Shown here: piece by piece, positions 1,883 through 56,100 of the stretch
Layout: each line of letters starts with the position of its first letter
How positions within the stretch are numbered: position 1 is the first letter of the stretch
DNA from: an uncultured Gemmataceae bacterium
Lineage (GTDB): Bacteria; Planctomycetota; Planctomycetia; Gemmatales; Gemmataceae
DNA length: 64,000 nt
Direction of reading: 5' to 3'
Assembly (NCBI GenBank): GCA_963701675.1
Contig: OY969623.1
Location: 6,450,599 to 6,514,598 of the forward strand
Translations under genes and position numbers: made by a program
The notes under the pieces: model-generated
What the model saw: only the letters and a program-made list of their open reading frames with translations
Database searches by the model: none
What the model was told of the DNA's origin: nothing

Positions 1883-2002
1883 GATTAGTTTCCTTCGTTT
1901 GGCGCAACTAGGCCACCCTCGATTATACCCGACGCAAACTTCAGTCCCTAATCCCAATTTTTCCCTCGCCTTTCGACCTTCCGTGTCTCCATAATAGGCC
2001 GC

Positions 2003-2605
2003 ATGAACTCATGCGGTTTTCGGGACATCGTGCGCAAGGCTCAGGCGGGTGACACCGGAGCCTTGGACGAACTGTTCCGCTTCGCCCGGCCGGTCGTCGA
2101 GCGGATCGTCCGAGCCCGGACCACGCCGCCGAACGAGAGCGTCAACGATCACGTGCAGAACACCTGTGCGCGGATCTTCGAGAAGCTCGACCAGTTTGAC
2201 GGAGCGCGGACCGTTTCGGACGATGAGCAATGCATCGCAGTTTTCGTCGGCTGGGTCCGGCAAGTAACGCTCTCGGTATTGGCCAACGCCCCGCGCGGCC
2301 GGGAACGGTTCCGCAAAGTCCGCATCGAGCCGGCGGGTTCGACCAACACACCAGGCAACGACCCGCCGGCGCCCGATGGAACGCCCAGCACCTACGCTCG
2401 TGCGGACGAGGAGTCCAAGCTGGTTCTCGCCGCGGTTGATGCGCTGCCGGATCCGATCAACCGCGAGATTGTAAAGTTGCGGTTTTTCGACGGCCTGTCG
2501 CTGCGGGAAATCACCGAGCAACTGTCGTTGACCTACGACGTGGTCCGCGAACGATACAAGACCAGCATGCGCCGGCTGCGGCGGGAACTGGAAAGTTTGG
2601 AATAA
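2003..2605 (+). CDS. ECF-type RNA polymerase sigma-70 family factor
   Basis: Region 2 (…FRFARPVVERIV…) and a region 4 helix-turn-helix (REIVKLRFFDGLSLREITEQLSLTYDVVRERYKTSMRRLRREL). Confidence 0.8.
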   Translation: MNSCGFRDIVRKAQAGDTGALDELFRFARPVVERIVRARTTPPNESVNDHVQNTCARIFEKLDQFDGARTVSDDEQCIAVFVGWVRQVTLSVLANAPRGRERFRKVRIEPAGSTNTPGNDPPAPDGTPSTYARADEESKLVLAAVDALPDPINREIVKLRFFDGLSLREITEQLSLTYDVVRERYKTSMRRLRRELESLE

Positions 2606-2690
2606 TTCAATCGACTCTGCGGTCTCCGCGCTCTCCGCGGTTAGGCAAGCAAACCGCCGAGATCGCAGAGATCGCGGAGAAAATTCCGGC

Positions 2691-5600
2691 ATGAACGATC
2701 CGATCAGTATCGACGACGCCGAACTCCTCTCGGAGGACATCGCCGAGGAATACCTGGAACACCTTCACGCCGGCAATGCGCCGGACCGCGCTCGCTGGCT
2801 CGATGCGCACCCTGACATAGCAGAAGTCCTCAACCGCCACTTGTCGGTTATCGAACGCATCCACCGCACGGCACAAGAGTCGAATGGCACCTCAACAGCG
2901 CTCGGCGCGGGTCTCCCGACCCCGCCGCCCGACCACATTGGCCGCTACGCAATTCTCGAAGTCCTCGGCCGTGGCGCATGCGGCACCGTGTATCATGCAT
3001 ACGATCCAAAATTCGATCGCGATGTCGCCCTTAAGGTCCTCCGCCCTGACCTGGCCGCCGATCCGCAATACGGTTCGCGCTTCCGCCGTGAAGCCCGCAT
3101 CGCCGCCCAACTGCGACACCCTCATATCGTCCCGGTTCACGCATCCGGCGAAGAAGATGGCCGAGTTTATCTGGACATGGCCTTCATCCCTGGCGAATCA
3201 CTCGAAGAGCGGCTAGCCGCCGGTCCTCTCTCGTTCGCCGACGCCGCCGACCTTGTCGAAAAACTCGCCGACGCCCTGCATTACGCCCATTCGCAAGGGA
3301 TCATCCATCGGGATGTGAAGCCAAGCAACATTCTGTTGGAGGGGTCAGGGGCCAGGGGCCAGGGGTCAGGAGTCAGAAGTCAGGATCAGGGATCAGAGTC
3401 TTCACTGACCCCTGACCCCTGGCCCCTGACCCCTGTTCTCACCGACTTCGGCCTCGCCCGCCGCGCCGCTGGGGAAGCGTCGTTGACCGAGCACGGCCAG
3501 GTCATCGGCACCCTGGCCTACATGCCGCCGGAACAAGCCCAGGGCGGCGGTCACCAGGCCGACGCCCGCAGCGATGTCTACAGCCTCGGCGCCGTGCTGT
3601 ATCGCTTGCTCAGCGGCCGTGTGCCGTTTCCGGATGACGGGTCATTCGTTTCACAGATTCACCGCATCGTGCACCACGAACCACCGACACCACGCACGGT
3701 GAACCGCGCAGTGCCGCGCGACCTGGAGACAATCTGTTTGAAAGCGATGGCCAAGGATCCGGCCGACCGCTTCACGACGGCGGCGGCGATGGCGGATGAG
3801 CTGCGGCGGTGGCGGAAGGATGAATCGCTGACAATACGGCCGCCGACGTGGTGGGAGAAAGGGCGGCGCTGGGCGCGGCGGAACAGGGCGGTAGCGAATG
3901 TTACGTTCGCTGCGGCAGTGCTGGTCGTGGCTGTCGGATTCCTGGCCCTGCTCGCCTGGCGCAACGCTGTGCTCGAAACCCGCACAAACGCCGAGGCCCA
4001 ATACATCAGGCTACTTTACCAGGCTAGACAACGCATTCTCACACCGATTGTCGGTCGCCGTGTGGAAGGACAACGCCTTCTAGAATCGGTGAAAGTACAC
4101 GGTGCGAGGATGCAAGATGCTGCAAGACGCCATCATCTCGACCTAGTGGCGCGATCGCTCTACGCAATGTCGTTAGGGGTACCGGACTTCGTTGCGAAGG
4201 AGGCCGACACTGTTAAGCTTCCAGAGGTGTTCTGGAAAATGTGGCCAATCGCGCTACATCCCGACGGGAAGGTGATGGTCATCGGCACATACAACGGGCC
4301 GGTGCGTTGGGATCGTGGTGGTTCGCCAAACTTGCCCCCCGATTTGGATCCGAATCTACATCGCCCGCGAATTGCGTTCAGTCCTGAAGGTAACTATCTC
4401 GCTTTCGCGCCGGAGGCAGGTGGCCTGATCCTCTACCCAGGCGACGTAGACACGACCCCAATCGCCAAATGGGCTTCGACAAAGAATGGTACGGTACAGA
4501 CCATCGGCTTTCATCCTGACGGACGTGCCGTGTCGCTGCTTTGCAGCGATGGGACGATCCAATGGCTTTCGGTACCGAATCTAAACGAGGCGTCTGTGTG
4601 GCCCAGCGATTCGACACTTGGGGAGGTGACGGTAGCCGCATTCTCACCCGACGCCTCGCAAATTGCGGTCGGGGACGCAAGCGGCAACGTACGGGTACGA
4701 TTCAGAGACGGCAAACCCATGAAGGTTCACTCTGCCAGCGATGACGCAACGCAGGTGGAGTCATTGGCTTGGTCGCCAGACGCCAAACTTCTTGCCGTCG
4801 GCAGGCGCGACGGCACTGTGGAACTCTGTGAAGCCGACAACGGAAGAATCCGCTGGCGAGGATCCATTTCCGCTACGGGTGTTAGCAATCTGGTCTTTGA
4901 TCCCTTGGGCCGTTGGCTTCTGGGCGGCTGGAGGCATTCCACGCTAAGAACGTGGGACGTGGCGAGCGGCCGCCAGGTCCTGACACTGGATTATTCCACT
5001 CCAATGGGATTCTCGCGTGACGGTAGGACGTTGGCTGTGGGCAATCAAATGAATGCGGCATTCGTGGAAATGGTCCCGCCCGCAACCGTGTGCCCTCTTT
5101 CCGGCCATCGGCGCGCTGTCGAGCATTTGGCTTGGAGCCGAAATGAGCGATTCCTGGTTTCGCTGGATTCCTCATACGAAATTCGTGTTTGGGACCTGGA
5201 GCGTGGCACTTCAATCATGGCCGTTCCGGCGCCACGTAGCGATTCTCAGTTTTTTCCAATGAACGCCCGGGTTGGAATCACTGATGACGGTGCTGTGGTT
5301 GCGTACGCAAGCGCCGGAACCAACGATTCTCACGCCTACATGTACGATGTGGCATCAGGGCACGTGCTCGGCAGCTGGCTGTTGCCAGGCGGTTTTGAAT
5401 CGATGGCGTTCAATGGAAAGGCGTTCGTGCTCGTGCGCGAGGAGTGTGCTTCAGCCGACGCGCCGCGGCAGAGCATCGTCTACGAATGGGCGATAGGACA
5501 TGAACCTCAAAAGCTGCATGCGTTGCGCGAAAGTGAAGCCGGCGACCAGCTAGGGTATTTCGCTAGTGAATTGACTCCGGACGCTCGCTATTTCCGATGG

Positions 5601-6092
5601 TGGGGCCCACGTAAACCGGACGAAAAACTGCGGCTGGAGGTGTACGATGTGGCTGCGAGACGCTGTATTAGGCGCTTTGGCCGGGCCGACTTGCGGGCTC
5701 CCGATGGTGGGCTTGGAGGCCATCTTTCCCCCGACGGTCGACGCTTACTTGTGGCACTTGGCGGAGGAGCCATGACGGCAATCGACCTGATTGATGGCAG
5801 CGAGTCTTATCCGGTGACAGGTTTGGAGTTCTCAGAAAACATGGAACGAACGGCACATTTCGCTGCGCCGAACGAATGGTGCAACTACGACCGTATCCGC
5901 GTATCGTCGCTCGACTCGTCAGGATCGCCTTTGGAACTGTTCAACCTCGATCTCTCAAACATCACCGGGCCGAATGTATGTTATCTCAGCCCCAGCGGCC
6001 GCTATCTTGCGTGGCGCGATGGGACCGGCGGCATCACCATCGCTGATCTACCAGCGCTGGAAACGGCAGTTGGCGGATTCCTAGCCGATTAA
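2691..6092 (+). CDS. Ser/Thr protein kinase (Hanks type) with transmembrane segment and C-terminal WD40/beta-propeller repeats; carries a 31-codon insertion between subdomains VIb and VII
   Basis: GRGACGTVY…ALKVL, HRDVKPSNILL, DFGLAR, YMPPE, DVYSLG; WD-like repeats (LAWSPD…, VWDL…, TWDV…) in the C-terminal half; it sits directly downstream of the ECF sigma gene. Confidence 0.85.
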   Translation: MNDPISIDDAELLSEDIAEEYLEHLHAGNAPDRARWLDAHPDIAEVLNRHLSVIERIHRTAQESNGTSTALGAGLPTPPPDHIGRYAILEVLGRGACGTVYHAYDPKFDRDVALKVLRPDLAADPQYGSRFRREARIAAQLRHPHIVPVHASGEEDGRVYLDMAFIPGESLEERLAAGPLSFADAADLVEKLADALHYAHSQGIIHRDVKPSNILLEGSGARGQGSGVRSQDQGSESSLTPDPWPLTPVLTDFGLARRAAGEASLTEHGQVIGTLAYMPPEQAQGGGHQADARSDVYSLGAVLYRLLSGRVPFPDDGSFVSQIHRIVHHEPPTPRTVNRAVPRDLETICLKAMAKDPADRFTTAAAMADELRRWRKDESLTIRPPTWWEKGRRWARRNRAVANVTFAAAVLVVAVGFLALLAWRNAVLETRTNAEAQYIRLLYQARQRILTPIVGRRVEGQRLLESVKVHGARMQDAARRHHLDLVARSLYAMSLGVPDFVAKEADTVKLPEVFWKMWPIALHPDGKVMVIGTYNGPVRWDRGGSPNLPPDLDPNLHRPRIAFSPEGNYLAFAPEAGGLILYPGDVDTTPIAKWASTKNGTVQTIGFHPDGRAVSLLCSDGTIQWLSVPNLNEASVWPSDSTLGEVTVAAFSPDASQIAVGDASGNVRVRFRDGKPMKVHSASDDATQVESLAWSPDAKLLAVGRRDGTVELCEADNGRIRWRGSISATGVSNLVFDPLGRWLLGGWRHSTLRTWDVASGRQVLTLDYSTPMGFSRDGRTLAVGNQMNAAFVEMVPPATVCPLSGHRRAVEHLAWSRNERFLVSLDSSYEIRVWDLERGTSIMAVPAPRSDSQFFPMNARVGITDDGAVVAYASAGTNDSHAYMYDVASGHVLGSWLLPGGFESMAFNGKAFVLVREECASADAPRQSIVYEWAIGHEPQKLHALRESEAGDQLGYFASELTPDARYFRWWGPRKPDEKLRLEVYDVAARRCIRRFGRADLRAPDGGLGGHLSPDGRRLLVALGGGAMTAIDLIDGSESYPVTGLEFSENMERTAHFAAPNEWCNYDRIRVSSLDSSGSPLELFNLDLSNITGPNVCYLSPSGRYLAWRDGTGGITIADLPALETAVGGFLAD
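3341..3435. repeat. heptamer-repeat palindrome (GGGGYCA)n…(TGRCCCC)n embedded in frame in the kinase CDS
   Basis: AGGGGTCAGGGGCCAGGGGCCAGGGGTCAGG…degenerate copies…CTGACCCCTGACCCCTGGCCCCTGACCCCTG; the arms are reverse complements. Confidence 0.8.
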
Positions 6093-6256: not shown

Positions 6257-8274
6257 ATGTTCTCTCTTCGAAAGCGCTCGCAAGCTACTCAAAGCCACGT
6301 GCGAAAAACGCGTTGGACGTGTCGGCCATCATTCGTCGCTTTGGAAAATCGTTGTCTGCCGTCAACGTTTTCATTGGCCTTCGACTCTCTCCCGAGTGCC
6401 CAAGGCTGGAACTACGCATCAAACGGTCCATCGGAAAACGCCGCCTATTGGGTCGACGGCACTAAGCTAACTCAAAACACAATGGCGACGGGCGTCACTT
6501 ACGCCCAATACAACAAGAATGCTTCGATTGATCCGACCAAAGCGTTTACCATTGAAACTCGCGTCAGAGTGATCGACAGCGAGACTACGGCGTGTTGCGC
6601 CCGGCGACGGCATTTCAGGCAATCGGTGCCACTGGCACCGAGTATTTTGGCTTTGGACTGAACAAGACAACTATCTACGCGCCATACGGTAAAGCTGGTT
6701 CCCTGTTTAATACCATCGACCCCACCCAGTTCCATACGTACCGGATCGAAGCAAACCCGGGCGTGAACGTCAGCATCTTCGTAGACGACGTCCTCCTCGT
6801 TTCGACGGTTCCCCCTCTGGTGGGGTCCGCAAATACTCTCTTACTTGGTAACGCTTCAAGCTTTGAAAACGGTCATGCTGAAGTTACGCACTACAAATTC
6901 ACGCAGGACACCTGCTCCACCGGCGACGATGTCGTCCTCACCTCGATCCGAACCGAGGACTCCCGCCAAATCCTCGTCGATTACGACATCAACAACCCCG
7001 CTCTGGCGGACAAGACATTCAACATCGGCATCTACCGCTCGCCTGACGAGGATTTCGACACGAGCGACGACGTGAAAATCGGATCGGTAACGATTTCAGG
7101 CCCACTGGCGATGGTGGGCCAGTATTTTGACGTGCCTGTAAACTTGGATTTCGACACAGCACTCGCACCAAGTTTCAATCTGAAGTACGTCATCGGCGTT
7201 GCCGATCCTGAGGGCACGCTGGATGGGTTCGGCCTGGATAGCTGCGATGCGCATTTTCGAAAGGTTGTCATTAGCGCTGTGTCCGTTGGCTTCCAGGTAC
7301 CTTGCTTTAGTACTTCTGAACCTGAATGGGTTACCACGATGGCAACTTCACTTAAGCAAGCCGGCTATGATGAAGTCGTTCCGTTCTGGTGGACCAGCTG
7401 CATTCCCTACCCCACCTATGATGATCGCGCGTCGAGCGACCTTTTTAACAGGCTTTCTTTGAAAGCGAGCGGGCTGATTCCGGCATTGGGAGAGAATGAC
7501 TCAATTGACCTGCACTTGATTGGCCACAGCCGCGGTGCTGTTGTCGTCAGCGGCACGATGGAGCTTTGGCAGGAACTCAACATACCTCAAGCAAAAGCCG
7601 GGTACATGAAGTTAACGCTCTTAGACCCCCATCCGGCGACCAACACATACGGGCTAAACGCAAGCATTTCCTCAAAGCCGAAAGCAGATGGTTACAAGGC
7701 GATCCAAGCTCTAATGAATGACGCGCCAATAACAGTCGCGGCGCGCGTGAACGAGGTAGAGGATTTCTGGCAGCGTACACACTACTATGAGGGGTTGCAG
7801 GGTAAGGAAGCAACCGTTAATCTCTGGGGACTTGACCACGAAGATATCAACGTAATGGGATCGCAGACCAACGTCTTTAGTTACAACCTCTCAGCCGCAT
7901 ACGAGTGCGGCAAGATCATTGGTCACACTGAAGTACATGAGTTCTATCAATCCACAATTCCAGGAAGTGGATGCCGATCAATCAAGAACGACACGCGCAA
8001 CACCTCTGAATTCGGCGGCAGGGTCGTCGTCGGCTCCAGTCCAGCGCCGATTCCGCCACCGGATCGGCCGTCTGCCAATTTAGCATTGGCACACAGTGCC
8101 AGCGACCTGATGAATCCCGCCCTTAGTAGCTCGGTGCCGGATTCCGATGCTGCGACGATGGTTGCCAAAACATCATCCGCACAGCCGATTGAACCGCCCA
8201 CACCATGCAGCCGCCTCGCCGCAACCGATTGGTTGACATCCACCATCCCCGACCCACTCGCCCTCGACCTGTAA
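6257..8274 (+). pseudogene. secreted LamG/ConA-like lectin domain fused to an alpha/beta-hydrolase (lipase-like, GHSRG) protein, split by a frameshift between about 6556 and 6661 (or a sequencing error)
   Basis: N-terminal 'FVALENRCLPSTF' motif (the same class as the FG-GAP genes); a LamG-like segment continues across two overlapping frames (ORFs 6134-6661 and 6592-8274); the nucleophile-elbow LIGHSRGAVV lies downstream. Confidence 0.5.
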
Positions 8275-8813: not shown

Positions 8814-8943
8814 GGCTTTGAACGTTCGTTCGCTGCAAGGTATCCGGCCGAAACGAAGAAATATGGCCGAGCGGCGTCTGAAAACCGCAGACCTCCCCGC
8901 ACTGCCGCCAAACGCAACCTAAGTTTCATTAGGCCGCGCCGCC

Positions 8944-10362
8944 GTGTTGCGGTGCTGGGAAGCCGTCCGTACGGTGGGGTACGAAAGTATGATGGGCCGG
9001 GTCTTTCTCGGGCGATATCAAACCGTCCGCCTGTTGGGCGAAGGCGGAATGGGGCGAGTGTACTTGGCACGGCAACTCGACCTGGGTCGGCAGGTCGTCG
9101 TCAAGGTCATGCACGAGCACATTGCCTCCGAGCCGAAGTTTCAGGAGCGTTTTCAACGCGAGACGCTCCTGATGGCCCGTTTTCAACATCCGTATGTCGT
9201 CACGCTGTTCGACGCGTCGCTCAACGATCCGCAAGGACCGTGCATCATCATGGAGTATATCCGCGGCGTCACGCTTGATGCACTCCGCAAAAGCAATCGT
9301 GAAAAGCTGGGCCCCGGTCGCGTCGCACGGCTGCTCGGACAACTGTGCGAAGCCTTGCAAGCCGCCCATGGGCAGGGCATTATCCATCGCGATCTGAAGC
9401 CGTCGAACCTGATGGTGGTCGATTCGGACTCGCCGTACGAAAAGATTAAAATCATGGACTTCGGCCTTGCCCGGCTGATTGGGGAGTCTGCGGTTCGACA
9501 CGGATCATCCACTTGCGGCGATTTCGCCGTAGGCACACCGGCGTACATTTGCCCGGAACAGGTGCGTGGCGAAGCGGTCGATCATCGATCCGATCTCTAC
9601 AGCGTCGGCGTGATCTTGTACGAGCTTCTGACCGGGCGCAAGCCGTTCGTCGGTGAATCGGCGATGGACATTTTGTTGGCGCATGCAACGGAAGAGCCGC
9701 CGCCTCTTACTGAGGTCGACGAGGATTTGGACCTGCCGCCAGGAGTTGAGAAACTCGTACTTGATTGTCTTGCCAAAGACCCGGCACACCGTCCGTCTAG
9801 TGCTCGTGAATTGGCGGAACGATTCGAGACGGCGTTGGCGCGAGAAGACTTGGATTCGGATGCCGTGATTCCCGAAGCTCTGCCGGTCGTGGAGCAGCCG
9901 GAAATCGATAACCCCTCGACGACCGACTCCGACGTATTGGTGTATCGCCTCGAAGCATGGATGCCGGAGTCCATCGCCCTCTACAAGCTCCGCGGCTACA
10001 TGAACGACGTAGGCGGGGACGTGGTCCAATCCGATCCGGGACGTGTGCGCGTATGCATCGGCGGGCCGGGCAGCGCTTATCAACTGCGTGGGCGTGGCTT
10101 ATCGTGGTTGGGATTGAGCCGAAACGCCGGCCGAATCGAAATGGACCTTCGCATGCAACACACCGATCTGGCACGCAGTAATCATCTGCTGATTACGGTG
10201 GTCATGCGCTCTCTCAACGGCAATTCCGCCTTCGACCCGCACTGGCGCACCGTGGCAACTCAAATCTACTGCGACCTGCGGGCGTATTTGATGGGAAAGT
10301 CGGGAGGGGGAGCGGGAGAAGAATTCAGAATTCAGAATTCAGAATTCAGAATCAAAAAATGA
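8944..10362 (+). CDS. Ser/Thr protein kinase with an uncharacterised C-terminal domain (start probably at the MMGRV Met near 8989)
   Basis: LGEGGMGRVYLA…VVVKVM, HRDLKPSNLMV, DFGLARL, GTPAYICPE, DLYSVG. Confidence 0.8.
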   Translation: MLRCWEAVRTVGYESMMGRVFLGRYQTVRLLGEGGMGRVYLARQLDLGRQVVVKVMHEHIASEPKFQERFQRETLLMARFQHPYVVTLFDASLNDPQGPCIIMEYIRGVTLDALRKSNREKLGPGRVARLLGQLCEALQAAHGQGIIHRDLKPSNLMVVDSDSPYEKIKIMDFGLARLIGESAVRHGSSTCGDFAVGTPAYICPEQVRGEAVDHRSDLYSVGVILYELLTGRKPFVGESAMDILLAHATEEPPPLTEVDEDLDLPPGVEKLVLDCLAKDPAHRPSSARELAERFETALAREDLDSDAVIPEALPVVEQPEIDNPSTTDSDVLVYRLEAWMPESIALYKLRGYMNDVGGDVVQSDPGRVRVCIGGPGSAYQLRGRGLSWLGLSRNAGRIEMDLRMQHTDLARSNHLLITVVMRSLNGNSAFDPHWRTVATQIYCDLRAYLMGKSGGGAGEEFRIQNSEFRIKK

Positions 10363-24961: not shown

Positions 24962-27497
24962 TCAAATGTCCGCGAGAGATTTCGAGACTTGGTCGAGTTC
25001 CTTCTGCAGGGCGTCGCGCTTCTTGATCAAGTCCTCACGCTTGGCTAAGTGTTTCAGCATCAGAGCGACCGGCTTTCCGACCGGGACAAACTCGCCTTTT
25101 GCGATCTTCGCAGACAACGTTTCCCATGCCGCGGCGAGTTGCGGATCGCCGTAGTGTTCGCTAATGACTTTCGGGGTTAAGTCCGGCAACTGGACCTCGG
25201 CCGTCTTCTTTCGGCCGACGACGTCGAGATCGCGAGCTACCTTGAGCAACTTCTCCGTCTGCTTGCTGTCGAGCGGGAAGTAATAACCGTCCGTGGGATC
25301 GACACCCCATTCTTTCATCCCAGCCGACTTGTGAATGCTGCGTCCGCTGGGCAGGTGGAAATGTGCGTGGGTCAAGCGCAACGTTCCCTTTCCGGGAATG
25401 TCGTGAATCGTCTGCACGGAGCCTTTGCCGTACGATCGGGTGCCCAGAACCACGGCACGCTTGTGATCTTTGAGTGCGCCCGCGACCACCTCCGCAGCCG
25501 ATGCTGTTTGTTCGTTGATCAGAATAACCAAAGGCGCCTCGGGAACCAGAGCGGCGCCACTTGCCGAGTAGGTGTTGCCGGCATTGTTGTGGCCTTTGAT
25601 CGTCACGATGTCGCCTTGATTGACGAATTGCTCGGCGATCTGCACAGCCGTCGAAAGCATCCCACCCGGGCAGAAGCGAAGATCAATCACCAAGCCTTTC
25701 AGGCCTTTCTCCTTTAGCTGGAGGAGCAACGCGCGAAGGTCGTCCGCCGTCGTGGCTGTGAAATGAGTCACGTCGACATAAGCGATCTGTTTGTCATTGT
25801 CGATCATGAACTGCCAACGATCGTTCGCGTCACGGCGAAATCCTTTGACGCTTGGCACCTTAATTTGGGCCCGTGTGAGAGCGATCTCCTTTTCTTGGCC
25901 GTCGGCATGGCGAATCTTCAATTTCACCGTGCTCCCTTTCGGGCCGAGAATACGGTTAACGGCGGCCGGTAGCTCCAGCGCCTTCGTCGATTGGCCGTCG
26001 ATCTCCAGAACGACATCGTCGGGCTGGATGCCTGCCTCGATTGCCGGGGAGCCCTCAATCGGCGAAACAATGGTGAGTTGATTGTCCTTCAGGCGTAATT
26101 GAATGCCGACGCCGGCGAAGGTGCCCTAGGGTGCCGCGACCTAATTCCTCGAACTGTTCTGGCGTCAGGTACTCGGAGTATGGGTCGTTCAACGCTGAAA
26201 CCATGCCACGGATGGCGCCGTCGCTCAGATCCTGTTCTTTGACGTCGCGAACGTAGCTCTTCATGATGAGTGCACGAACTTCCGCGATTCGCTCGTTCTC
26301 CGCCGGGCACGGAGTAAGAACCTCCGCTGCGGCGTCCGAGTTAGCGGAGGCCGGCCGAGCGGACGCCGGCTGCAAACTGAGAGCGGAAAGGGGCAAGATC
26401 GTTGCAACGACGAGGAAAGCGCACGCAACGGCGGCACGGCGGCTCAAAGGCCGGCGGTCACGGGTCGAATCGAGAATGAGCCGTAGCCGTTGCTCGATTC
26501 TTCGCGGCCGACCCATCGCCAAGGCGACAGGGGCCGCAAAACGACTCACAGGCAAGCCGGCCGTGACCGCCAGCAAATGTTCGGCGTAGTCCGGACCGCT
26601 TGGCCCGGCATTCAGCACCATGTCGTCACACGCGCGTTCCTGCTCAGTTCGAAGTTGGCGCACGGCGATCCAAGTCATCGGATTAAACCAATAGAACGCC
26701 CGGCAAACGTGGGCAAGGAACTGAAGCATGCAATCTGCCCGGCAAATGTGCGCCAGCTCATGTAACAAAACCACGCGCACGCATTGCGGCGACCAGTTCA
26801 GCGCGTCCAGCGGCAATAAGATGACCGGCCGCTTGACACCCCAAGTCATCGGCATCGTCCGTCGCCGACTTGCCAGCAGGACAACTCGACGATTAACACC
26901 GAACCGATCCGCAAGGAGACGAACTAACGTGGTCAAAAAAGTGTCGTCCAGCGGATAACAATCACGCCGAAGCCGGCGAAGACTGATAATCCCCAGCGCA
27001 AGGGGGATGACTACCAGCGCAGCGCCTCCTAGCCAGCTCAAGAAGAGCCTGGTGGGCAGCGGCATTTCAGGCGCCGCAACCACAGCGGCCGTCGCTCGGT
27101 CCGTAAGAACCGGGGCACGGCGTTCATTCAAGTCGTTTACGAGCGGGTTCGTTCGTCGGAAATCCATGCCTTGAGAAGCGCGGGCGTCCGGGCTTACCGG
27201 CAACTCCGCAAGAGCGCCGGGCGGTGGCAGTGTTTCCTCGATCTTGATTTTCGCCCGTTGCGCCAGCCAATCCGCACGAATGGGTACGTGCCAAGTCGGC
27301 AGGATTGCCGAAAGCACGGGCAGGAAAAGGCAGCCGGTCAGTGCCGCGGACCAAATGATATGGCGGATGGCGGCGGACCTTCGGCGAAGCGCCGTTGTAA
27401 CCAGGCCGGCTATGGCCAAAAGCAACGCACCTTTCAACGATGCGTCGATCAAAATCGGCAGTCCCACTTGTGCGGCGTAGTTAATTGTGCTTCCCAC
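24962..27497 (-). pseudogene. BlaR1/MecR1-like M56 peptidase sensor fused to an S41 (CtpA/Prc-like, PDZ-containing) C-terminal processing protease; the reading frame is broken at about 26120 by a 10-bp insertion
   Basis: M56 HExxH 'VLLHELAHICRAD'; S41 'GLVIDLRFCPGGMLS', 'RSYGKGSVQ'; the junction 'ggcaccCTAGGGCACCttcgcc' introduces TAG; removing 10 nt restores '…LGRGTFAGVGIQL…'. Confidence 0.7.
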
Positions 27498-27499
27498 GT

Positions 27500-27889
27500 T
27501 TACCGTCCCTTCTTTCGTGCCTGGCTGATCAGATCGGCCAGGCGGGCGAGTTCGTCGGGAGACAAATCGGTGGCGATGTCACCGAGATGGGCGGCGACGG
27601 CCTTCTCGAGAGAGCCGTCGAAGAACGTTTCCAAGACTCGTCGAAAAGCCGATCGTCCGACATGACCGCGCGGCCGATTCGGCTGGTAGACATAGCGGAT
27701 GCCGTCCTCCTTGTGTCGAGCGTGACCCTTGGCTTCCAGAATCCGCAGCAACGTCCGGACGGCGGTGCGGCTTGGGGCATCGGGGAGATCGGCGTGAACT
27801 TCGGCGGCCGTTGCCTCACCACGTGCGTAGAGAATGTTCATGATCTGCCGCTCTCGGCGGCTGAGATGTTCCTCGAGTCGTTCCGGCAT
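27500..27889 (-). CDS. BlaI/MecI/CopY-family transcriptional repressor
   Basis: Winged-helix 'LSRRERQIMNILYARGEATAAEVHADL…SRTAVRTLLRILEAKG'; immediately upstream of, and co-oriented with, the M56 sensor gene. Confidence 0.75.
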   Translation of the reverse strand: MPERLEEHLSRRERQIMNILYARGEATAAEVHADLPDAPSRTAVRTLLRILEAKGHARHKEDGIRYVYQPNRPRGHVGRSAFRRVLETFFDGSLEKAVAAHLGDIATDLSPDELARLADLISQARKKGR

Positions 27890-28002
27890 TAGCGAAAAGT
27901 CCTGTGGAGGATGATGGAAGCAAAAACGGCCTATATGCCAAATTTTTAACCGGATCGGAGGTGGTGTCAAGCCCAACGTGCCAAGATTTTGACGCCGCTG
28001 AG

Positions 28003-28380
28003 TCACTCGCGGAACAGCACCAGGTATACCGCCATGGCCGTTCCGATGATCGACATCACGACGGCGGCCATTAATGGCAACGACCATCGCGGCGGTAAAT
28101 AGGGTTCGTTGCGATTCAGACGTTGAACGATGCGCCAATGCTCGGCCGCGGCCAGAAGATTGATCGCCACGCCGACGACCACGAGCGCCGTCCCAAACCA
28201 CAACGAAAGCCCCGGAGACTGCTGCGGCGGTTTGTGTTCGACGAGCGACAACTCACGAAGCACGAAGCTAAAACGGGCCAGAACGAAACCGAATCCCATG
28301 AGCGCCAGGCCCGTTCGAATCCACGCCAGCAGCGTTCGCTCGGAAGCGAAACGAACTCGCGGATCTTCACCTCCATCCAT
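28003..28380 (-). CDS. DUF202 (YidH-like) small membrane protein
   Basis: 'FASERTLLAWIRTGLALMGFGFVLARF' is the DUF202 signature. Confidence 0.55.
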   Translation of the reverse strand: MDGGEDPRVRFASERTLLAWIRTGLALMGFGFVLARFSFVLRELSLVEHKPPQQSPGLSLWFGTALVVVGVAINLLAAAEHWRIVQRLNRNEPYLPPRWSLPLMAAVVMSIIGTAMAVYLVLFRE

Positions 28381-28615
28381 GGCCTGATTTCCTCCCGTCC
28401 GATGCGGAATCTCTGGCACGGCCGCATCAGTTGTAACGCCCACGACACTCTCTTGGCGCTGGCGTCCCATTGTCGAGTGGCATCCCTAGTGGCTACTACC
28501 CGCGTGGTAGGCTAGGATAAACACGTCAAGTTTGCCGGCAATGGTGAGACGCTACGTAAACCATCACTCCACGTCAACGCCCCTAGCCGTGATAGCGAAA
28601 AAGCGTTTGAAATCG

Positions 28616-32821: not shown

Positions 32822-32905
32822 CCTGCGTGGGCTAGTCGGCTTCATCCCGAAGCCAACCTTTGTTATCATCCGGCGTCCGCGTGGTCGCTCGAAACTCGCA
32901 ATGGA

Positions 32906-34769
32906 GTGCGATCCTTGACCGCCATACTGGGCATATCCGCCTTCTACCATGACAGTGCTGCGGCATTGGTGGTCGACGGCGACATTTTCGCCGCCGCTCA
33001 GGAAGAGCGGTTCACGCGCATCAAACACGACTCCGCATTTCCCAAATGCGCCATTCGCTATTGCCTCCGGGAAGGCGGGCTATCCCCGCGCGATCTGGAT
33101 TACATCGCCTTCTACGACAAGCCGCTGACCAAATTCGAACGGCTCCTGGAAACTTACCTGGCCTTTGCGCCCGCGGGTTTCGCAGCTTTCGGCTCGCCAT
33201 GCCGGTGTGGTTGAAGGAAAAATTGTTCACACGGCGGACTATTCGCCGCGGCTTCGACGAGCCGATGACCGCGCCCTTGGTGTTCACCGATCACCACGAA
33301 AGTCATGCCGCCAGCGCGTTCTTTCCGAGCCCGTTCGATGAAGCCGCGATTCTTACGCTCGACGGCGTCGGCGAATGGAGCACAACGACATACGGTGAGG
33401 GCCGCGGCAATCGCATCTCGCTGACTCACCATCTCTCGTTTCCGCATTCGTTGGGTCTCTTGTATTCGGCGTTCACGTATTACTGCGGCTTCCGGGTGAA
33501 CAGCGGTGAGTACAAACTGATGGGCCTCGCGCCCTATGGCCAACCGATTTATCAAGACGCGATTTACCGCCATCTCATCGATCTCAAGCCCGACGGCAGC
33601 TTCTGGCTCAACATGAAGTATTTCAACTATTGCCCGGGATTGACCATGACGAGCCGGTGCTTTCATCGGCTCTTCGGTGGTGCTCCGCGCGACCCGGAAT
33701 CGCCCATTCTGCAACGGCACATGGACCTGGCTGCCAGCATTCAGGCCGTGACGGAAGAGATCATGTTGCGCCTCGCCCGCACCGTGCATCGGCAGACGGG
33801 CATGAACAAGCTCGTGCTCGCCGGCGGCGTGGCGCTCAACTGCGTGGCGAATGGACGGTTGCTGCGCGAAGGGCCTTTCGAGTCGATTTGGATCCAGCCT
33901 GCCGCGGGAGATGCCGGCGGCGCGCTCGGGGCGGCCCTTTTCACCTGGCACCAACTTCTGAACAAGCCGCGCGGGCCGAGGTCGGACGATTCGCAAAAGG
34001 GCAGCCTCCTCGGTCCTGCATTCTCTGCCTACGAAGTCGAACAGTTCTTGCACGCCAATGAGGTCCCCCACGAGTGCTTTCAAGACGAGTCGGAACTCGT
34101 TGCTCACGCGGCCGATCTGCTGGCGGAAGGGAAAGTCGTCGGTTGGTGTCAAGGCCGGATGGAATTTGGCCCTCGAGCCCTCGGGCGCGGAGCATTCTCG
34201 GCGATCCGCGCTCGCCGAACATGCAGGCTCTCATGAACCTCAAGATCAAGTTTCGCGAGAGTTTTCGACCGTTTGCACCGTGCGTTCTGCGTGAGCATGC
34301 CGCCGACTGGTTCGATCTCAATCCGGAAAACGAAAGCCCGTACATGCTTCTGGTCGCGCAAGTCAAACCGAAGCATCACGTTCCCATCACCGTCGCGGAT
34401 CACCGCGTGATGGAACAGGACTCGGATTTGCGGAAACGAGTGAACGTCGTGCGCTCCGTGGTGCCGGCGATCACCCACGTCGATTACAGCGCCCGCCTAC
34501 AGACCGTGGACGAGGTACGAAACCCGCGCTTTCACCGCCTGCTCAGTGCATTTCATCAACGAACCGGCTGCCCGATTCTCGTGAACACGAGCTTCAACGT
34601 CCGCGGTGAACCCATCGTGTGCTCTCCGCGCGACGCATACCGATGTTTCCAGGCAACGAAAATCAATGCGTTGGTAATGGAAGATTGCGTAGTGCACAAG
34701 TCGGACTTGGAGCCAGAGAGTGCGCGCGCCGAACAAGCGGAGTATCTCGCTCAGTTTGCGTTGGATTAA
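32906..34769 (+). pseudogene. NodU/CmcH-family carbamoyltransferase interrupted by two single-nucleotide deletions (about 33200 and about 34200), or sequencing errors
   Basis: N-terminal 'ILGISAFYHDSAAALVVDGDI…AAQEERFTRIKHD'; the protein continues in the next frame ('RSFRLAMPVWLKEKLF…', '…FGPRALG|ARSILGDPRSPNMQ…') across three overlapping ORFs in frames 2, 1 and 0. Confidence 0.7.
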
Positions 34770-50726: not shown

Positions 50727-53070
50727 CTAGTTTTCTGACGGTCTAGAGCCGAATTCCATCGCGAACGGGTCAAGAACCAAGTGCAGCCGCTTGATCGCCG
50801 CGGCACGTCCTGGCGGAAGGATTCGTTTGGGCGTGGCCGCGGGATCGGATTTCGCGACATCGGGTGGCGAAGTGCGAATTAGTTTTACGGCTGATCTCCG
50901 TATTCCATCCGGCTCATCCTCAAGCGGCATCGGCGGCCAGATGCCGTCGTTGAGCACGACAGCGACACCATTCTCTAGCGCGGCCACGACATCCAGCCAG
51001 CCGATATCCGCGAGTGCCACTGGTGCCTGAACGAAAGAACTGCCTGGATAGGGGAAATCACCCACGGAGAACTGACAATCATTCTTAAACGTGCCATCGC
51101 CGTTTCCTATCAAGAGGCTCACGGTGCCGCCCCAATGATTGCCCACGATCAAATCCACGTTGCCATCGCCACTGACGTCGCCGGCCGTGATCGTCCGAGA
51201 TGTATTGCCGACCGCGTAGCTAGTCGGCGCGGAAAAAGTCCCGTCGCCATTACCGGAGAGTACGCGAACACTACCGACGTTAGAATCGCTTGTAACGGCC
51301 AGATCGAGGTCACCGTCTCCATCAAAGTCTTCCGTCACCAAATCGTAGAGAGACGATCCGGCTGCGAAGCCGGCCGCCGGCTGAAACGTGCCGTTACCGT
51401 TCCCCAGGAGAATACTTATCGTGCCGGCAACCTTGTTCCCGGTGGCGAGGTCTGGTTTGCCGTCGGCGTCGAAGTCCCCGATCCCCACACTGCGGGGCTC
51501 GTTGCCCGTGTCGAACGTGAGACCCGAACCAAACGTCCCGTCGCCAATTCCCAGCAGAATTTGCACCGAATCGCCGACGCTATCGGCGATGACAAAATCC
51601 AAGTCGCCATCGCTATCAACATCAGCGGTGGCGATAGCGAAAATCGTGTTACCACCGGAAGGATAGCTGACGAAAGGCTTGAACGTCCCGTCACCGTTGC
51701 CGAGGGCGACGCGTACCGTCTCCTCGAAGTTTAATCCGACCGCAACATCGAGGGCCCCGTCACCGTTGAAATCTCCTGATGTGAATCCTCGTGTACCACT
51801 CCCGATGAGGTAGGACCGCGATTTCTCGAAGGTCGCATTTCCCACGCCAAGCATTACCGTCAGATACCCGGGGCCACCGTTGTTGCCTTCCGACAATATC
51901 AAATCGACTTCACCATCTCCGTTGAGGTCCGATGGAGCGATCCCCCAAGGGTGTTTGGGAGCGGCGGAAATCAGCCATTCAGTGAACACCCCTCCGCCAA
52001 GCCCGATCTGAAACGTCACAGTCCCGCCGGTGGTCACATTGTTGGCGATGGCGATGTCCGGCACTCCGTCGCCGGTGTAATCGCGAATCGCCGCGCCGCT
52101 GACGCCGGTGCCGGCAATGTACGGCCCCGCGGTCTGGAACGACCCGTCCCCGTATCCCAGGTTCAGGTGGAATTGCTCTGGACCCAACGCAATAAAGTCG
52201 AGTTTACCATCTTGATCGAGGTCCTCCGTGTCTATCAAGTGCACACTGGTTCCGGCGGAATACACTCCTGCGATTTGGAATGTGCCGTCGCCATTGCCCA
52301 AGCGCACGATCACTGTTCCATCAGTATTGGCAACTGCCAGGTCGGGGTTGAAGTCAGCGTTGTAGTCGGCGACGGAAACATCGTTCGGGGTTCCTTCGTT
52401 GTACTGCGCCGAACCAGAACGTGCCGTCGCCATTACTCAAAAGGATGGCCGTCTTGGGTGCGGAACTGAAGTTGCCTACGGTGACGATGTCGTAGAGGCC
52501 GTCGCTGTTGAAATCGCCGGTCGATACCGCCCGCATTTTTGTGCCCATGTCGTAGCTGACCGTATTTTGGAAGGCGCCGCCGCCCAGACCGGTGAGAACG
52601 GTAACATTTCCGAGGTCGTAGTTGGCCACGACTAAATCAATGATTCCATCGACGTTGAAGTCTGAATACCCTACGGAAGTGGGATTCGCTCCGGCCTCGA
52701 AAGTCATTGGTCGACGAAACAACCCGGTGGCCGATCCACGGAGCACGGCGATCTCATCGTTGGGCCCTGAGTAATTATCGTTCGTCACCACCAGATCGAG
52801 CCGGCCATCGCCGCTAACGTCGACCGCGACCAATGACGTCGGGTTATTGCCGCCGGTTGGAAAGCTCTTCGGTGCTCCGAACGTGCCGTTGCCGGCGTTC
52901 AGCATAATGCTGATGGAGCCCGGCTTGGTTTGATTGGTCACGACGATGTCGTAGAGCCCATCGCCGTTGAAATCGTCGCTCACGACGTCTGATGGCGACG
53001 CACCCACCAAGATCGCCTGCGGCGCGGCGAAGCTCGGCACATCCCGGCGTTCGAGGGCTTCCAGGGTCAA
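50727..53070 (-). pseudogene. FG-GAP/VCBS-repeat beta-propeller protein, paralogue 1, split by a +1 frameshift near 52400-52420 (or a sequencing error)
   Basis: N-terminal 'MTLEALERRDVPSF'; repeating '…LGNGDGTF…DFNGDG.LDL…' units; overlapping ORFs 52354-53070 and 50727-52433 join into one continuous FG-GAP repeat. Confidence 0.7.
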
Positions 53071-53141
53071 CCGGCGATAGCGGTTAGTCTGAGAGTTTTG
53101 CGACTCATGACAACCTCTCCTCCTAGCAAAGCGTCTTGGGA

Positions 53142-56100
53142 CTATGTCATTTCAATCGAAAGTACATCACCAAGCGGATCGTGTCCGGCGGCAATTGCGT
53201 ATCGCACGGCGGGACGTATGCGGTGAGCGTGGGCTCCGGGTTTCGCCGTGTCGTCAACGGTTGCCAACCGGTGAATTCGAGGATTCGATTCGACCGTGTG
53301 CGTTGTCGATTTGTCTGGCTTCGTAAATGCCGATGCGGCGAGCATTCGGACGTCCGCCCCCGGCCCGTCGCTGATCGGCAGCGGCGGCCAGTCGGCGGCG
53401 TTAAATAGGATCGCCATGCTAATTTCGTTGACGGCTGCGATGTCGACGAAACCGTCGCCGTTGAAGTCGCCGACGGTCAAGTCGAGTCCTTTCGCCAACA
53501 CCGCATACACGAGCGGCGCTTTGAACGTCGCGTCCCCATTACCCAAAATGATGCTTACGGCGCTCGGCGCTACAACGGCGAAGTCGAACTTTCCGTCGCC
53601 GTTAAAATCCGCCGTTACGATTCCCGCTACAGTACCCGTACCGGTGGTGATGACAATTGGGACCTGAAAAGTGCCGTCGCCGTTGCCAAGCAGCAATCGC
53701 ACGGTGCCTGGACTGACGTCATTCGTTACCGTTACGTCGGTGTTGCCGTCGGCGTTGAAGTCGCCGGTTGCGAGGAATTCCGGTTTCGTCCCCGCTGGAA
53801 ATGCCGTCGACGATTGGAACGTGCCGTCGCCGTTGCCGAGAAGAACGCTGATCGTTCCACCATCATAATTGGCAGACACGATGTCCAGAATGCCGTCATT
53901 ACTTACATCGGTGACGGCCACATAGAGCGGTAGTTTGCCGACTGCATACCCTTGCACGGAAGGATAAACACCGCCGCCACCTGAGGCGAGGAGCACTTCG
54001 ACTGTCGGTGGATTCGTTTGAGGACTGCTCGATGCCAAGTCAAACAAACCATCGCTGTTGAAATCGCCGCCGGCTGTCAATCCACCTTCATAGACGGCCG
54101 GTCCGGGGAAAGAGCCGTCCTGCTCATTGAGCAAAACATGGGCGCCAATGTTGCCGACACCCACAATGTCGCGAAAGAGATCACCATTGAAGTCCGCGAC
54201 GGCAACGGACGAAATCGCCGAGCCCAAAACATAGCGAGACGGAATCCCAAAAGTTCCATCGCCATTCCCGAATCGAACCGCGGTTATCGATTCTAAGACC
54301 GTTACGAGATCGAGTATTCCGTCCTCGTTCAGGTCATCGATCGCCAGGCTAGCCGGCTCAGCGTACACGTCGGGCGCGGCTACGAACGTCCCGTCTCCGT
54401 TTCCGAGACGTACGCACAGTAACGGGCACGCGATGCTGACAATGTCCTGAAATCCGTCATTGTTGACGTCTGCGACATCGACATCCGGTCTCGGAGCGCC
54501 GACTGCTACCAGCGTGGCGGCACTGAATGTCCCATTGCCGTTACCCAAGAATAAATGCAGTCCGTAATTGGGATAGGTCCCCCCGTTGGCAACGAGATCT
54601 GCTTTGCCATCGCTGTTGAAATCGCCGCCGGCTAGCGCCAGTGGCTGGTAAATCGAGGTGTTAATCGACATACCAAACGTGCCGGCGCCCAGGTTCAGTA
54701 ACACGCGAATTCCATTACTCGTGGCCAGCCCCAGATCGAGTTTGCCATCACCGTTGTAGTCGTCGGCGACAATTCCCACGCCGGTGCCGCCGCTGTTATA
54801 GCCGACCGCCGGTTCGAAAGAACCGTCGCCGTTCCCGAGCAGAACGCTGGCAGTCGAGCCGGCGGCCGCTACATCGAGGAACCCATCGCCATTCAAGTCG
54901 GCAACCGCAACCGCACTGGGCGTCGTCACCACAGCCACAGTGCTCGGCGGACGGAAGGAGCCGTCGCCGTTCCCCAATAATATGCTGACGTTCGCGGCGC
55001 CTCCGACGTTGTTGGGCACGACCATATCCAGGATTCCGTCCTGGTTGAAGTCGCCCAGAGCGACATCGTCCGGTTTCGGCCCTGCGTTATAAAGCGGCGC
55101 TTGAAAGTATCCCGAGGGGCCGCCGAGATGGATCGTGGCGTAGTAACGTCCGACGGCATAATCTTGGAATCCATCGTTATTCAAGTCGTGCACGATGACG
55201 TCGCCGCCACCTTCGGACTGTATGCTGGTGCCGGCGGAAAAGGCGCCGTTCCCGAGCCCGTTGAAAGTCAGGATGTGCGACGTCCACAACGAGCTGAGGA
55301 TGATGTCGACGGAGTAGAGCACGGTCAGGTCCAAAATGCCATCGACATCAACGTCGTGCGCGGTAATGCCATTGGCGTCGCCCCCGGTGGGCATGGAATA
55401 AATGGGGAGCGCGCTTAGAGCACCGCCGCCGGTACCGAGAAGGATTGTTGCCGAGTCGCTCGCACGATTCGATGTAGCGACATCCGGAAGACCATCGCCG
55501 TTAACATCTGCCACGGCGACGGCGACTGGGATGTCACCAACGGAATAGCTGACGCGGCGGCGCAAAGAACCGAGTTGATTTCGCAACACCGTAATCGTGC
55601 TCGCCGTGTTGCCGACGATGATGTCGACATCCCCGTCGCCATCCATGTCCGCGCCGGTGATGGAATTCGGCTTGGTGCCCGCCGGGTATGTCTTCGGTGG
55701 CAAGAACGTGCCGTCGCCGTTACCGCGCAAAACGTCGATCGTGTCGCTGTTGTTGTTCGTCAAGACGATGTCGAAATGGCCATCCCCGTGAAGTTCGGTG
55801 ACAACCAGAGATCCGAAGCCGTTTCCGATCCAAGTGGGTGGCTGAAACGAACCGTCGCCGTTACCGATCATGATCTGCAACGCACCGCCAACGGCGAGGT
55901 CCGGGATACCATCCGAATTAAAGTCCGCGGCAGCGACAGCGATGGGACTGGAGGAAACGGCGTAGCCGGTAAAGTGAAACGTACCGTCGCCGTTATTAAG
56001 GAGCACCACCAGGCCGCCATTGAAGGCATCATTGGTTACGGCCAGATCAATGTCTCCATCCGCATCGAAGTCATCGAGCGCCAGTCCCGCCGAATGGAAA

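Follow-up and report, generated by a model that had tools for sequence, protein, structure and literature searches.

A probable BlaI/BlaR-type signalling pair with a PDZ/S41 protease as putative sensor domain, split by a single-base insertion that is probably an assembly artefact

Introduction

On the minus strand of the stretch of DNA analysed here (64 kb, hereafter the window), a gene for a BlaI-type repressor is followed by a gene for a BlaR1-like M56 metalloprotease, the reading frame of which is broken ahead of a PDZ domain and an S41 protease. The locus raises two questions, namely which kind of sensor is encoded here and whether its gene is really inactivated. There is growing recognition that BlaR-type transducers form a general signalling family, most members of which do not sense beta-lactams. 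To our knowledge, the signal has been identified for almost none of the non-canonical BlaR-type sensors.

In S. aureus, BlaR1 cleaves BlaI directly and in a sensor-dependent manner, and it signals by excluding an extracellular loop from the Ser-Lys active site of its sensor (PMC9834060). A survey of 254 M56 architectures showed that the majority of BlaR-like M56 proteins have non-beta-lactam C-termini and that 96% are located near a BlaI homolog (PMC13492132). The architectures with at least 100 InterPro entries in this survey are those with no C-terminal domain and those with TonB_C, TP, M23, Plug, CarbopepD_reg_2, DUF4825 and Amidase_3; PDZ/S41 is neither among them nor discussed there. Our literature searches for a description of an M56-S41 fusion or of a planctomycete BlaR found none.

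Results

The repressor gene (27500..27889, minus strand) is intact and encodes a winged-helix protein of 129 aa, for which an identical protein is on public record (P0121, NCBI/ENA). It matches PF03965 (Penicillinase_R) over profile positions 1-115/115 with an E-value of 1.1e-24 and 87.4 bits as compared to a cutoff of 22.6, which places it in the BlaI/MecI/CopY family; with the specific BlaI_of_BCL and CopY/TcrY equivalog models it remained below the cutoffs. The repressor is 87.6% identical to its ortholog in L001, a related locus. The GTG start codon of the sensor gene lies 2 nt past the blaI stop codon on the minus strand, and the two genes are translationally linked. Thus, the classic blaI-blaR1 layout that an earlier sequence-only reading had recognized at this locus is borne out. 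Neither a beta-lactamase nor a PBP2a gene adjoins the pair.

Upstream of blaI, a promoter scan revealed a candidate sigma-70-like promoter (TTGACA-17 nt-AAAAAT, 10/12 matches) at 27942..27970 on the minus strand. It is contained in a block of about 40 bp at 27930-27975, CTTGACAC...ATCCGGT.AAAAATTTGGCATA, which is kept between the window and L001 despite the sensor proteins of the two loci sharing just 63% identity, and which probably serves as a promoter. When the region upstream of blaI was searched for a BlaI operator, no inverted repeat or clear dyad was seen. Directly upstream, a gene for a DUF202 membrane protein was found at 28003..28470 of the same strand (PF02656, E 3.4e-17). The order glgB-DUF202-blaI-sensor recurs in L001, and the DUF202-blaI pair also on a 1.2-kb Logan contig of ERR12036784, an independent run in which blaI is identical to that of the window, while no DUF202 gene was found beside another relative, P0002. 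We regard the DUF202 gene as an apparently conserved neighbour and as a candidate member only of the signalling system.

The N-terminal part of the sensor gene (26129..27497, minus strand) comprises the GTG start, four transmembrane (TM) helices, the M56 domain and CtpB_N-like helices (PF22694, E 7.6e-14). In the given sequence it is read as an ORF of 480 aa with a Peptidase_M56 domain (27497..26055, minus strand). The match to PF05569 (E 2.3e-29, 102.9 bits, cutoff 31) assigns the protein to the M56 family. The domain contains the sequence HELAH at residues 246-250 as well as E287, and H246, E247, H250, E287 and D291 of the window copy all fall into invariant columns of a 30-sequence alignment. 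S. aureus BlaR1 (8exs) matches the sensor in sequence across the HExxH/catalytic region.

Hydropathy peaks are found at residues 15-37, 47-65, 153-176 and 355-373, positive-inside analysis placed positive charge in the M56 loop and in the loop between TM1 and TM2, and the extracellular loop between TM2 and TM3 is long and disordered. In an AlphaFold2 model with a mean pLDDT of 86.5, helices are present at matching positions; the structure modelled is that of the syntenic ortholog P0001 (63% identical) and not that of the window protein itself. Hydropathy and this model together, a check of the topology that the sequence-only reading had suggested, predict four TM helices, with the M56 domain in the cytoplasm and the S41 part on the outside following TM4.

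The C-terminal part of the sensor gene (24962..26127, minus strand) encodes the PDZ domain, the S41 core and a C-terminal helical region. Peptidase_S41 (PF03572) matches with an E-value of 1.2e-44, and the PDZ_2, PDZ_6 and PDZ models match as well. With the break in the frame repaired as described below, the protein reaches 286.6 bits with TIGR00225 (prc; cutoff 218.6), and only 212-247 bits with the CtpA, CtpB, CtpC and CtpZ NCBIfam exception models, the cutoffs of which are 525-665. The catalytic Ser/Lys dyad and the Gln of S41 peptidases are present in the window copy as S666 (TASAAE), K691 and Q695 (GKGSVQ; repaired numbering) and are invariant in the 30-sequence alignment. The model of P0001 matches CtpA (8sxg_A) with a target-normalised TM-score of 0.81, 36% identity and an E-value of 3e-32, and furthermore 4c2c (CtpB), 9jr1 and 1fcf; the structures matched by its S41 half are those of P. 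aeruginosa CtpA, H. pylori CtpA and B. subtilis CtpB. In the profile search the sensor C-terminus gave no PF00905 or class-D penicillin-binding match, and scores of 89.7 bits with blaR1_generic (400 needed) and 25.7 bits with MecR1 (1200 needed) do not identify a bona fide beta-lactam sensor. As the sequence-only reading had stated and the profile searches confirm, the penicillin-binding domain is thus replaced by a complete, CtpA/CtpB-like, PDZ-gated S41 protease of the Ser-Lys type, the catalytic activity of which is predicted.

As given, the sensor gene does not form one continuous ORF in the range of about 820-900 aa, but is broken into pieces of 480 aa and 387 codons. Comparison with ortholog DNA located the cause of this split to one extra base at position 26128, a T on the coding strand (A on the plus strand), within a CAG codon for Gln: the window has GGC ACC C[T]AG GGC ACC TTC, as compared to GGC ACA CAG GGC ACC TTC in L001. 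Removal of the T of C[T]AG restores GRGTQGTFAGVG, the reading of the two closest relatives at this junction (given also as LGRGTQGTFAGVG), together with a protein of 844 aa, which equals the ortholog P0001 in length. The motif GGCACC-CTAG-GGCACC, from which a 10-bp direct duplication had been deduced, does exist, on the minus strand and at 26135..26120 instead of 26115-26130. However, the deletion of 10 nt that had been proposed as the repair would leave the product 3 residues shorter at the junction than all of the 94 aligned relatives. Because these residues are kept in the ortholog DNA and in the 94 relatives, the lesion is a single-base insertion in the Gln codon. Both GGCACC copies are, on the evidence of this comparison, native Gly-Thr codons.

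Nor does the TAG interrupt the M56 frame, as had been assumed. This frame continues ...GRGT-LGHLRRRRHSITPEGQSTHHCFAD up to a TGA at 26057..26055, and the TAG is only the point beyond which the S41 frame cannot be extended upstream. According to three-frame translation, the stretch 26055..26127 (minus strand) supplies the out-of-frame end that the 480-aa product has in the annotation, LGHLRRRRHSITPEGQSTHHCFAD followed by the stop; read in the correct frame, it encodes the start of the PDZ domain, the carboxylate-binding loop of which (FAGVGI) comes directly after the lesion. In the public annotation the split appears as P0003 (480 aa, ending with the out-of-frame tail) and P0128 (a fragment of 319 aa). 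Apart from the lesion, the C-terminal part is open and undamaged.

Intact fusions are frequent among relatives. In Planctomycetia, more than 100 clusters of 820-900 aa contain both PF05569 and PF03572 without interruption. The proposal to look for an intact M56-S41 fusion beside blaI in related genomes was answered positively many times over: wherever the surroundings of a fusion gene were visible, blaI precedes it, and it lies directly upstream in L001-L004, in L062 and on the P0002 contig. Among 67 M56 loci that were fetched, blaI was found in 66 and directly upstream in 65; one locus has blaI at a distance of 3.6 kb and one is at a contig edge. The sequences thus compared indicate that the M56-S41 fusion is a widespread family trait in Planctomycetia and not peculiar to this locus, and that neither of the two catalytic centres varies within the family. 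The closest relatives of the sensor are 63-68% identical to it, and none closer was found to show an intact allele in the species. The loci among the matches listed in a genome-contig scan for relatives were distant ones. An exact-pattern scan of metagenome contigs for either allele of the junction gave 0 matches, a protein search for which 190 aa spanning the junction were used returned just P0128 and distant S41 proteins, and in ERR12036784 no fragment of at least 110 aa covering the 2.5-kb sensor gene was present.

Besides the inserted base, the window contains at least three further single-base indels, two of them in a carbamoyltransferase gene and one in the gene for an FG-GAP protein, at about 33175, 34185 and 52415. 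The Pfam profile of the carbamoyltransferase is spread over three frames (N-domain 2-88; N-domain 85-346 and C-domain 1-26; C-domain 26-170). The FG-GAP repeat is split into HMM positions 1-22 and 30-55, and removal of one base restores 1-55. Otherwise, the genes hit by indels have neither stops nor signs of decay. Further same-strand ORF junctions, at 36311, 11891, 53145, 31188, 48775 and 49524, were judged to be ordinary gene boundaries. Because at least three more single-base indels fall into two other conserved genes of the window, the break in the sensor gene is most likely an error of the assembly consensus, a judgement which rests on the density of indels; most likely, an intact protein of 844 aa is what the organism produces. 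Two observations count against an artefact. Homopolymers are the commonest context for consensus errors, and the T inserted here (CCC[T]AGGG) lies outside any homopolymer or repeat tract; in addition, the split is kept as two public CDSs.

The same two observations would fit a real and recent mutation, by which the strain would carry a pseudogenised sensor. What would be left in this case is an M56 protein of 480 aa that ends in a short stub in the periplasm, plus an S41 remnant that is not exported, and the regulon of BlaI would stay permanently off or permanently on. The extra base is, after all, part of the deposited sequence, and both halves are otherwise intact, as expected of a very recent event; functional M56 partners of BlaI that lack a sensor exist elsewhere, e.g. 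in mycobacteria, according to work cited in PMC13492132. Nevertheless, if three conserved genes had been hit by four single-base indels over a distance of 64 kb, this would be an unusual load of pseudogenes for a free-living bacterium whose genome measures 8.7 Mb. Two of these indels sit in a single gene that is perfectly preserved otherwise, and more than 100 relatives of the sensor are all intact. We therefore consider a real mutation less likely than a consensus error. The sequence-only reading had regarded the lesion as a real small duplication and not an error; a consensus error is now the leading interpretation, and the duplication itself can no longer be upheld. It would have inactivated the gene by repeating 10 bp (GGCACCCTAG-GGCACC...) in an ancestor with the protein sequence ...LGRGTFAGVGIQL..., in line with the occurrence of GGCACC twice at a spacing of 10 nt and with the restoration of the frame by a 10-nt deletion. 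Yet the putative 10-mers agree at only 8/10 positions, and of the ten bases taken to be extra, nine belong to the ancestral coding sequence; L001 has them, and 94/94 relatives imply them. The DNA of L001 already has both GGCAC(A/C) copies with CAG between them. A duplication would have to be combined with two substitutions and a lineage-specific deletion of 3 residues, where the addition of one nucleotide explains everything.

A functional break, either by programmed ribosomal frameshifting or, in line with the earlier suggestion of switching, as a phase-variable on/off switch of the full-length sensor, could be suspected because the frameshift falls on the very junction of the transducer half with the PDZ/S41 half. 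We consider it highly improbable, as the site has neither a homopolymer or simple repeat nor a slippery P-site/A-site context (ACC CUA G) that would permit a +1 shift, no relative is split or frameshifted at the junction, and unrelated genes of the window carry similar indels. A pair of separate genes for M56 and S41 that simply abut, as the two annotated CDSs (P0003 and P0128) would imply, is the least credible explanation of all. Ahead of its first possible start the S41 frame already runs open over 66 codons, a stretch that encodes most of the PDZ domain, and it has no signal peptide; the last 24 residues of the 480-aa product are out of frame, and in the relatives one polypeptide of about 844 aa contains both parts.

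Discussion

Taken as a whole, the data are explained best, and in our view with fair probability, by a BlaI/BlaR-type pair for one-step proteolytic signalling in which the +1 insertion is likely an artefact and signals pass from the PDZ/S41 module to the M56 domain. The window holds roughly one indel per 16 kb, and what looks like a pseudogene is probably a consensus error. Because of this density, calls of gene inactivation from this genome need confirmation at the level of reads.

By analogy to BlaR1 and to PDZ-gated CtpB, the PDZ/S41 module would engage the C-terminus of a periplasmic protein or peptide, whereupon its conformation or the occupancy of its active site would change. This change would be relayed via TM4 to the cytoplasmic M56 domain. 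The activated M56 domain could then cleave BlaI and thereby derepress the conserved promoter before blaI and a further regulon. A beta-lactam is not expected as the signal, because S41 replaces the penicillin-binding domain, no beta-lactamase or PBP2a gene is adjoining, and the blaR1_generic score is low. More tentatively, M56-PDZ-S41 might be a self-contained device of two proteases, in which occupancy or acylation of the S41 Ser-Lys site by the C-termini of envelope proteins plays the role of beta-lactam acylation; the break would then possibly be a natural sensor-less allele. One possibility in such a device is that the long extracellular TM2-TM3 loop is displaced, as in the loop-exclusion model of BlaR1. 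If this were true, Planctomycetia would have a direct coupling of damage to or turnover of envelope proteins with the cleavage of a BlaI repressor.

Since the sensor domain belongs to the well-understood PDZ-gated C-terminal processing proteases, testable predictions can be made: C-termini of peptides should act as inducers, and S666A as well as PDZ mutants should be signal-blind alleles. The M56-S41 family could therefore be a tractable entry point, and its pathway would give Planctomycetia a route from the envelope to transcription that has not yet been described.

With BlaR1/BlaI and MecR1/MecI of S. aureus and B. licheniformis (MEROPS M56; 8exp-8ext) the pair shares the order of repressor and then sensor, the PF03965 repressor, four TM helices, the third and fourth of which flank a HExxH gluzincin domain in the cytoplasm, and a sensor outside the cytoplasm after TM4 that is a Ser-Lys acyl-enzyme hydrolase. 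It differs from BlaR1 and MecR1, which have a class-D/PBP-like penicillin-binding domain, in that this hydrolase is a PDZ-gated S41 protease, and also by its long and disordered TM2-TM3 loop. The atypical BlaIR systems, e.g. CenIR of C. difficile and BlaI/BlaR of mycobacteria, likewise couple M56 and BlaI to a C-terminal module that does not bind beta-lactams, usually with the BlaI homolog directly upstream; unlike in these systems, the C-terminal module of the window sensor is a complete protease with predicted catalytic competence.

CtpA of P. aeruginosa and H. pylori and CtpB of B. subtilis (MEROPS S41) have the same succession of CtpB_N-like helices, PDZ domain, Ser/Lys/Gln core and C-terminal helices. 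Whereas these enzymes are soluble or lipoprotein-anchored, the S41 protease of the window is covalently tethered to a membrane metalloprotease. The sensor resembles CtpB/SpoIVB-SpoIVFB (pro-sigmaK), DegS-RseP and Prc-RseP (cell-surface signalling), where an extramembrane PDZ serine protease and a membrane zinc protease free a transcription factor (background in PMC7593790). In contrast to these cascades, both proteases are part of one polypeptide, the metalloprotease is of family M56 instead of M50, and the proposed target is a soluble repressor rather than an anti-sigma or pro-sigma factor.

A single inserted base interrupts the sensor gene

The repressor gene (27889..27500, minus strand) encodes 129 aa with a full-length Penicillinase_R domain (BlaI/MecI/CopY, PF03965, E 1.1e-24). 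The sensor gene follows on the same strand with a GTG start at 27497, two bases after the TAA stop codon of blaI, which bears out the blaI-blaR1 layout described in the sequence-only reading. Its first frame of 480 codons contains Peptidase_M56, and a second minus-strand frame, open from 26125 down to a stop at 24962, encodes PDZ and Peptidase_S41 domains. The public record keeps the split gene as two CDSs of 480 aa (P0003) and 319 aa (P0128), and only one copy of the BlaI/M56-S41 system is present within the window.

The break had been ascribed to a 10-bp direct duplication at 26115-26130 that places a TAG stop in the M56 frame. The motif GGCACC-CTAG-GGCACC was read directly in the window sequence, but lies at 26135..26120 (minus strand), and the M56 frame bypasses the TAG, continuing past the lesion up to a TGA at 26057..26055 and adding 24 aberrant residues (LGHLRRRRHSITPEGQSTHHCFAD) on the way. 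Two repairs, removal of 1 nt and the proposed 10-nt deletion, were constructed, and the repaired protein was used as a database query. In 94 of 94 aligned fusion relatives the junction is three residues longer than in the 10-nt deletion model, which leaves the protein short by this number; the two closest relatives (63% and 59% identity) have EELGRGTQGTFAGVGIQ at the junction. The DNA of P0001, the nearest of them and the syntenic sensor ortholog, reads GGC CGG GGC ACA CAG GGC ACC TTC GCC, as compared to GGT CGC GGC ACC C-T-AG GGC ACC TTC GCC at the same site of the window. Thus, one extra T in the CAG codon (A at 26128 on the plus strand) explains the whole lesion. Its removal gives GRGTQGTFAGVG and a protein of 844 aa, identical in length to P0001. 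The GGCACC hexamers are native Gly-Thr codons flanking Gln, and the supposed 10-mers agree at just 8 of 10 positions. The junction alignment, the P0001 DNA and this imperfect match together refute a 10-bp duplication. The inserted base directly precedes the PDZ carboxylate-binding loop (FAGVGI).

CTAG is much rarer across the window than expected from base composition (51 observed versus about 235). The sole CCCTAGGG palindrome of the window results from the extra base at 26128, and the repaired site holds CCAGG.

Assembly artefact or mutation

Single-base frame changes were also found elsewhere in the window. A NodU/CmcH-type carbamoyltransferase (about 32888-34769, plus strand) is spread over three frames joined at 33167-33183 and 34177-34193. 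These cover Carbam_trans_N positions 2-88, then Carbam_trans_N positions 85-346 with Carbam_trans_C positions 1-26, and finally Carbam_trans_C positions 26-170, so that the Pfam profile continues unbroken. One or both junctions lie within a run of G, and a single added base mends each (apparent deletions), giving a flawless protein of about 620 aa. In an FG-GAP repeat protein (50727-53151, minus strand) an apparent one-base insertion, ACG TTC [T]GG TTC, lies at 52409-52422; the upstream ORF, with an N-terminal RRLTLEALERR signal region, breaks off inside a repeat (HMM positions 1-22), the ORF downstream of it begins mid-repeat (positions 30-55), and removal of one base restores a full repeat (1-55). 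Independently, a crude Viterbi pass based on codon usage predicted switches of frame at 26125/26126, at 52407/52408 and around the carbamoyltransferase junctions.

In total, three genes within 64 kb that are well preserved in other respects carry four single-base indels, two of them insertions and two deletions. Such a pattern is what residual consensus errors typically leave behind, far more so than independent pseudogene formation in a free-living bacterium whose genome spans 8.7 Mb. We therefore consider the sensor break, earlier taken for a real duplication and not an error, to be probably an assembly artefact of one extra base. That the base at 26128 is a genuine recent mutation is the less likely reading, given the same four indels. 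Programmed frameshifting or phase variation, and with it the idea that the sensor is being switched, finds no support, as the break shows neither a repeat nor a slippery site and the relatives have no shift at this point. A 1,222-bp contig of Logan run ERR12036784 encodes DUF202 and a BlaI protein with exactly the sequence of the window's, together with the first 35 sensor codons; thus, independent reads of this organism exist.

A possible extra frame switch was noted at 6374-6583 (plus strand), where a coding-like stretch of 70 codons meets a 563-codon ORF (6583-8271); no Pfam match was found on either side of it.

Architecture of the intact sensor

Hydropathy places four transmembrane segments of the repaired protein at 15-37, 47-65, 153-176 and 355-373, and positive charge is found on the short TM1-TM2 loop (RRRSAAIRH) and on the 173-352 loop. 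The M56 domain (HELAH 246-250, E287) is therefore predicted to be cytoplasmic and everything after TM4 to lie outside, which is the topology of BlaR1. AlphaFold2 modelled P0001 (mean pLDDT 86.5) with helices in the places of those in the window protein and a disordered TM2-TM3 loop; TM4 is followed by a CtpB_N-like helical element, PDZ, the S41 core and a C-terminal helical region with a final 35-residue helix. In Foldseek searches the outer half matched P. aeruginosa CtpA (8sxg_A; E 3e-32, target-normalised TM-score 0.81, 36% identity) as well as H. pylori CtpA, B. subtilis CtpB and D1 processing protease. The sequence of the inner half aligns with that of S. aureus BlaR1 (8exs) over the catalytic region. 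H246, E247, H250, E287, D291, S666, K691 and Q695 are invariant in a 30-sequence alignment and all present in the window copy, arguing that both proteolytic centres are under selection across the M56-S41 family.

Relation to known systems

Taken broadly, the BlaIR family includes this system. Unlike β-lactam-sensing BlaR1/MecR1, however, the sensor scores far under the NCBIfam cutoffs and, as first read, ends in PDZ and S41 instead of a penicillin-binding domain, in agreement with profile and Foldseek (CtpA/CtpB) matches. With a score above the TIGR00225 cutoff, the outer half qualifies for the S41 prc subfamily, but belongs to none of the named Ctp equivalogs. A C. difficile CenIR study (2026) surveyed about 15,000 M56 proteins and counted 254 architectures; true BlaR proteins with a transpeptidase made up only about 6% of the proteins, and 96% lay near a BlaI homolog; architectures with at least 100 entries exclude PDZ/S41, which is nowhere mentioned (PMC13492132). 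Our literature searches found no paper that describes M56-S41 fusions or BlaR-like systems of planctomycetes. The fusion is abundant in databases, auto-annotated as 'S41 family peptidase', yet uncharacterised. Without the duplication, an unstudied sensor architecture stands as a solid observation.

More than 100 database clusters combine PF05569, PF22694, PDZ and PF03572 in one chain of 820-900 aa, arguing against separately encoded M56 and S41 parts in relatives; the sources named for them are Gemmataceae, Isosphaeraceae, Pirellulales and Planctomycetaceae. The intact fusion sought beside blaI was found: a gene for a BlaI homolog immediately precedes the sensor, in the same orientation, in every fusion locus examined (L001-L004, L062 and the contig of P0002, another fusion relative). 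Of 67 loci with M56, drawn from many phyla, 66 have a BlaI homolog. P0001's Logan contig has the gene order of the window (glgB, DUF202, blaI, sensor); DUF202 is the sole shared neighbour and is missing in some relatives. Among the loci listed, the nearest stand-alone PDZ-S41 relatives (33-43% identity, without M56) come from Phycisphaerae MAGs (L005-L018), and none of these 14 loci matching the S41 half only has blaI. Their placement suggests that the fusion arose within Planctomycetota.

Putative promoter and proposed signalling model

Upstream of blaI, a block of about 40 bp (CTTGACAC...ATCCGGT.AAAAATTTGGCATA) is nearly identical between window 27930-27975 and L001 5515-5560, whereas the sensors are just 63% identical. 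It includes a promoter-like site, TTGACA-17-AAAAAT (27970..27942, minus strand), and probably represents promoter plus BlaI operator; no dyad operator was detected upstream of blaI.

CtpB-type proteases are gated via a peptide bound to the PDZ domain. In S. aureus, BlaR1 cuts BlaI directly; the trigger is acylation of the sensor Ser-Lys site by a β-lactam, by which an extracellular loop is excluded (PMC9834060). By analogy, the most economical model would be that the PDZ/S41 module binds or processes the C-terminus of a periplasmic protein, that its altered conformation or occupancy is passed on via TM4, and that the M56 domain then cuts BlaI, which would relieve repression of the operon and of other targets. 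Alternatively, the S41 domain might make a site-1 cut in its own polypeptide or loop.

Other genes in the window

Four large FG-GAP/VCBS-type repeat proteins of about 800-1140 aa each are encoded in a run (50727-62563, minus strand), at least one with the planctomycete-type N-terminal RRLxLExLExR motif. A Mutator/IS256-family transposase gene (62508-63890, plus strand; PF00872, E 6e-66) adjoins this cluster. At 1952-6092 (plus strand) an ECF-type sigma factor gene precedes that of a Ser/Thr kinase of about 1,150 aa with WD40 repeats, and a second Ser/Thr kinase is encoded 3 kb downstream of the latter (8923-10362, plus strand).
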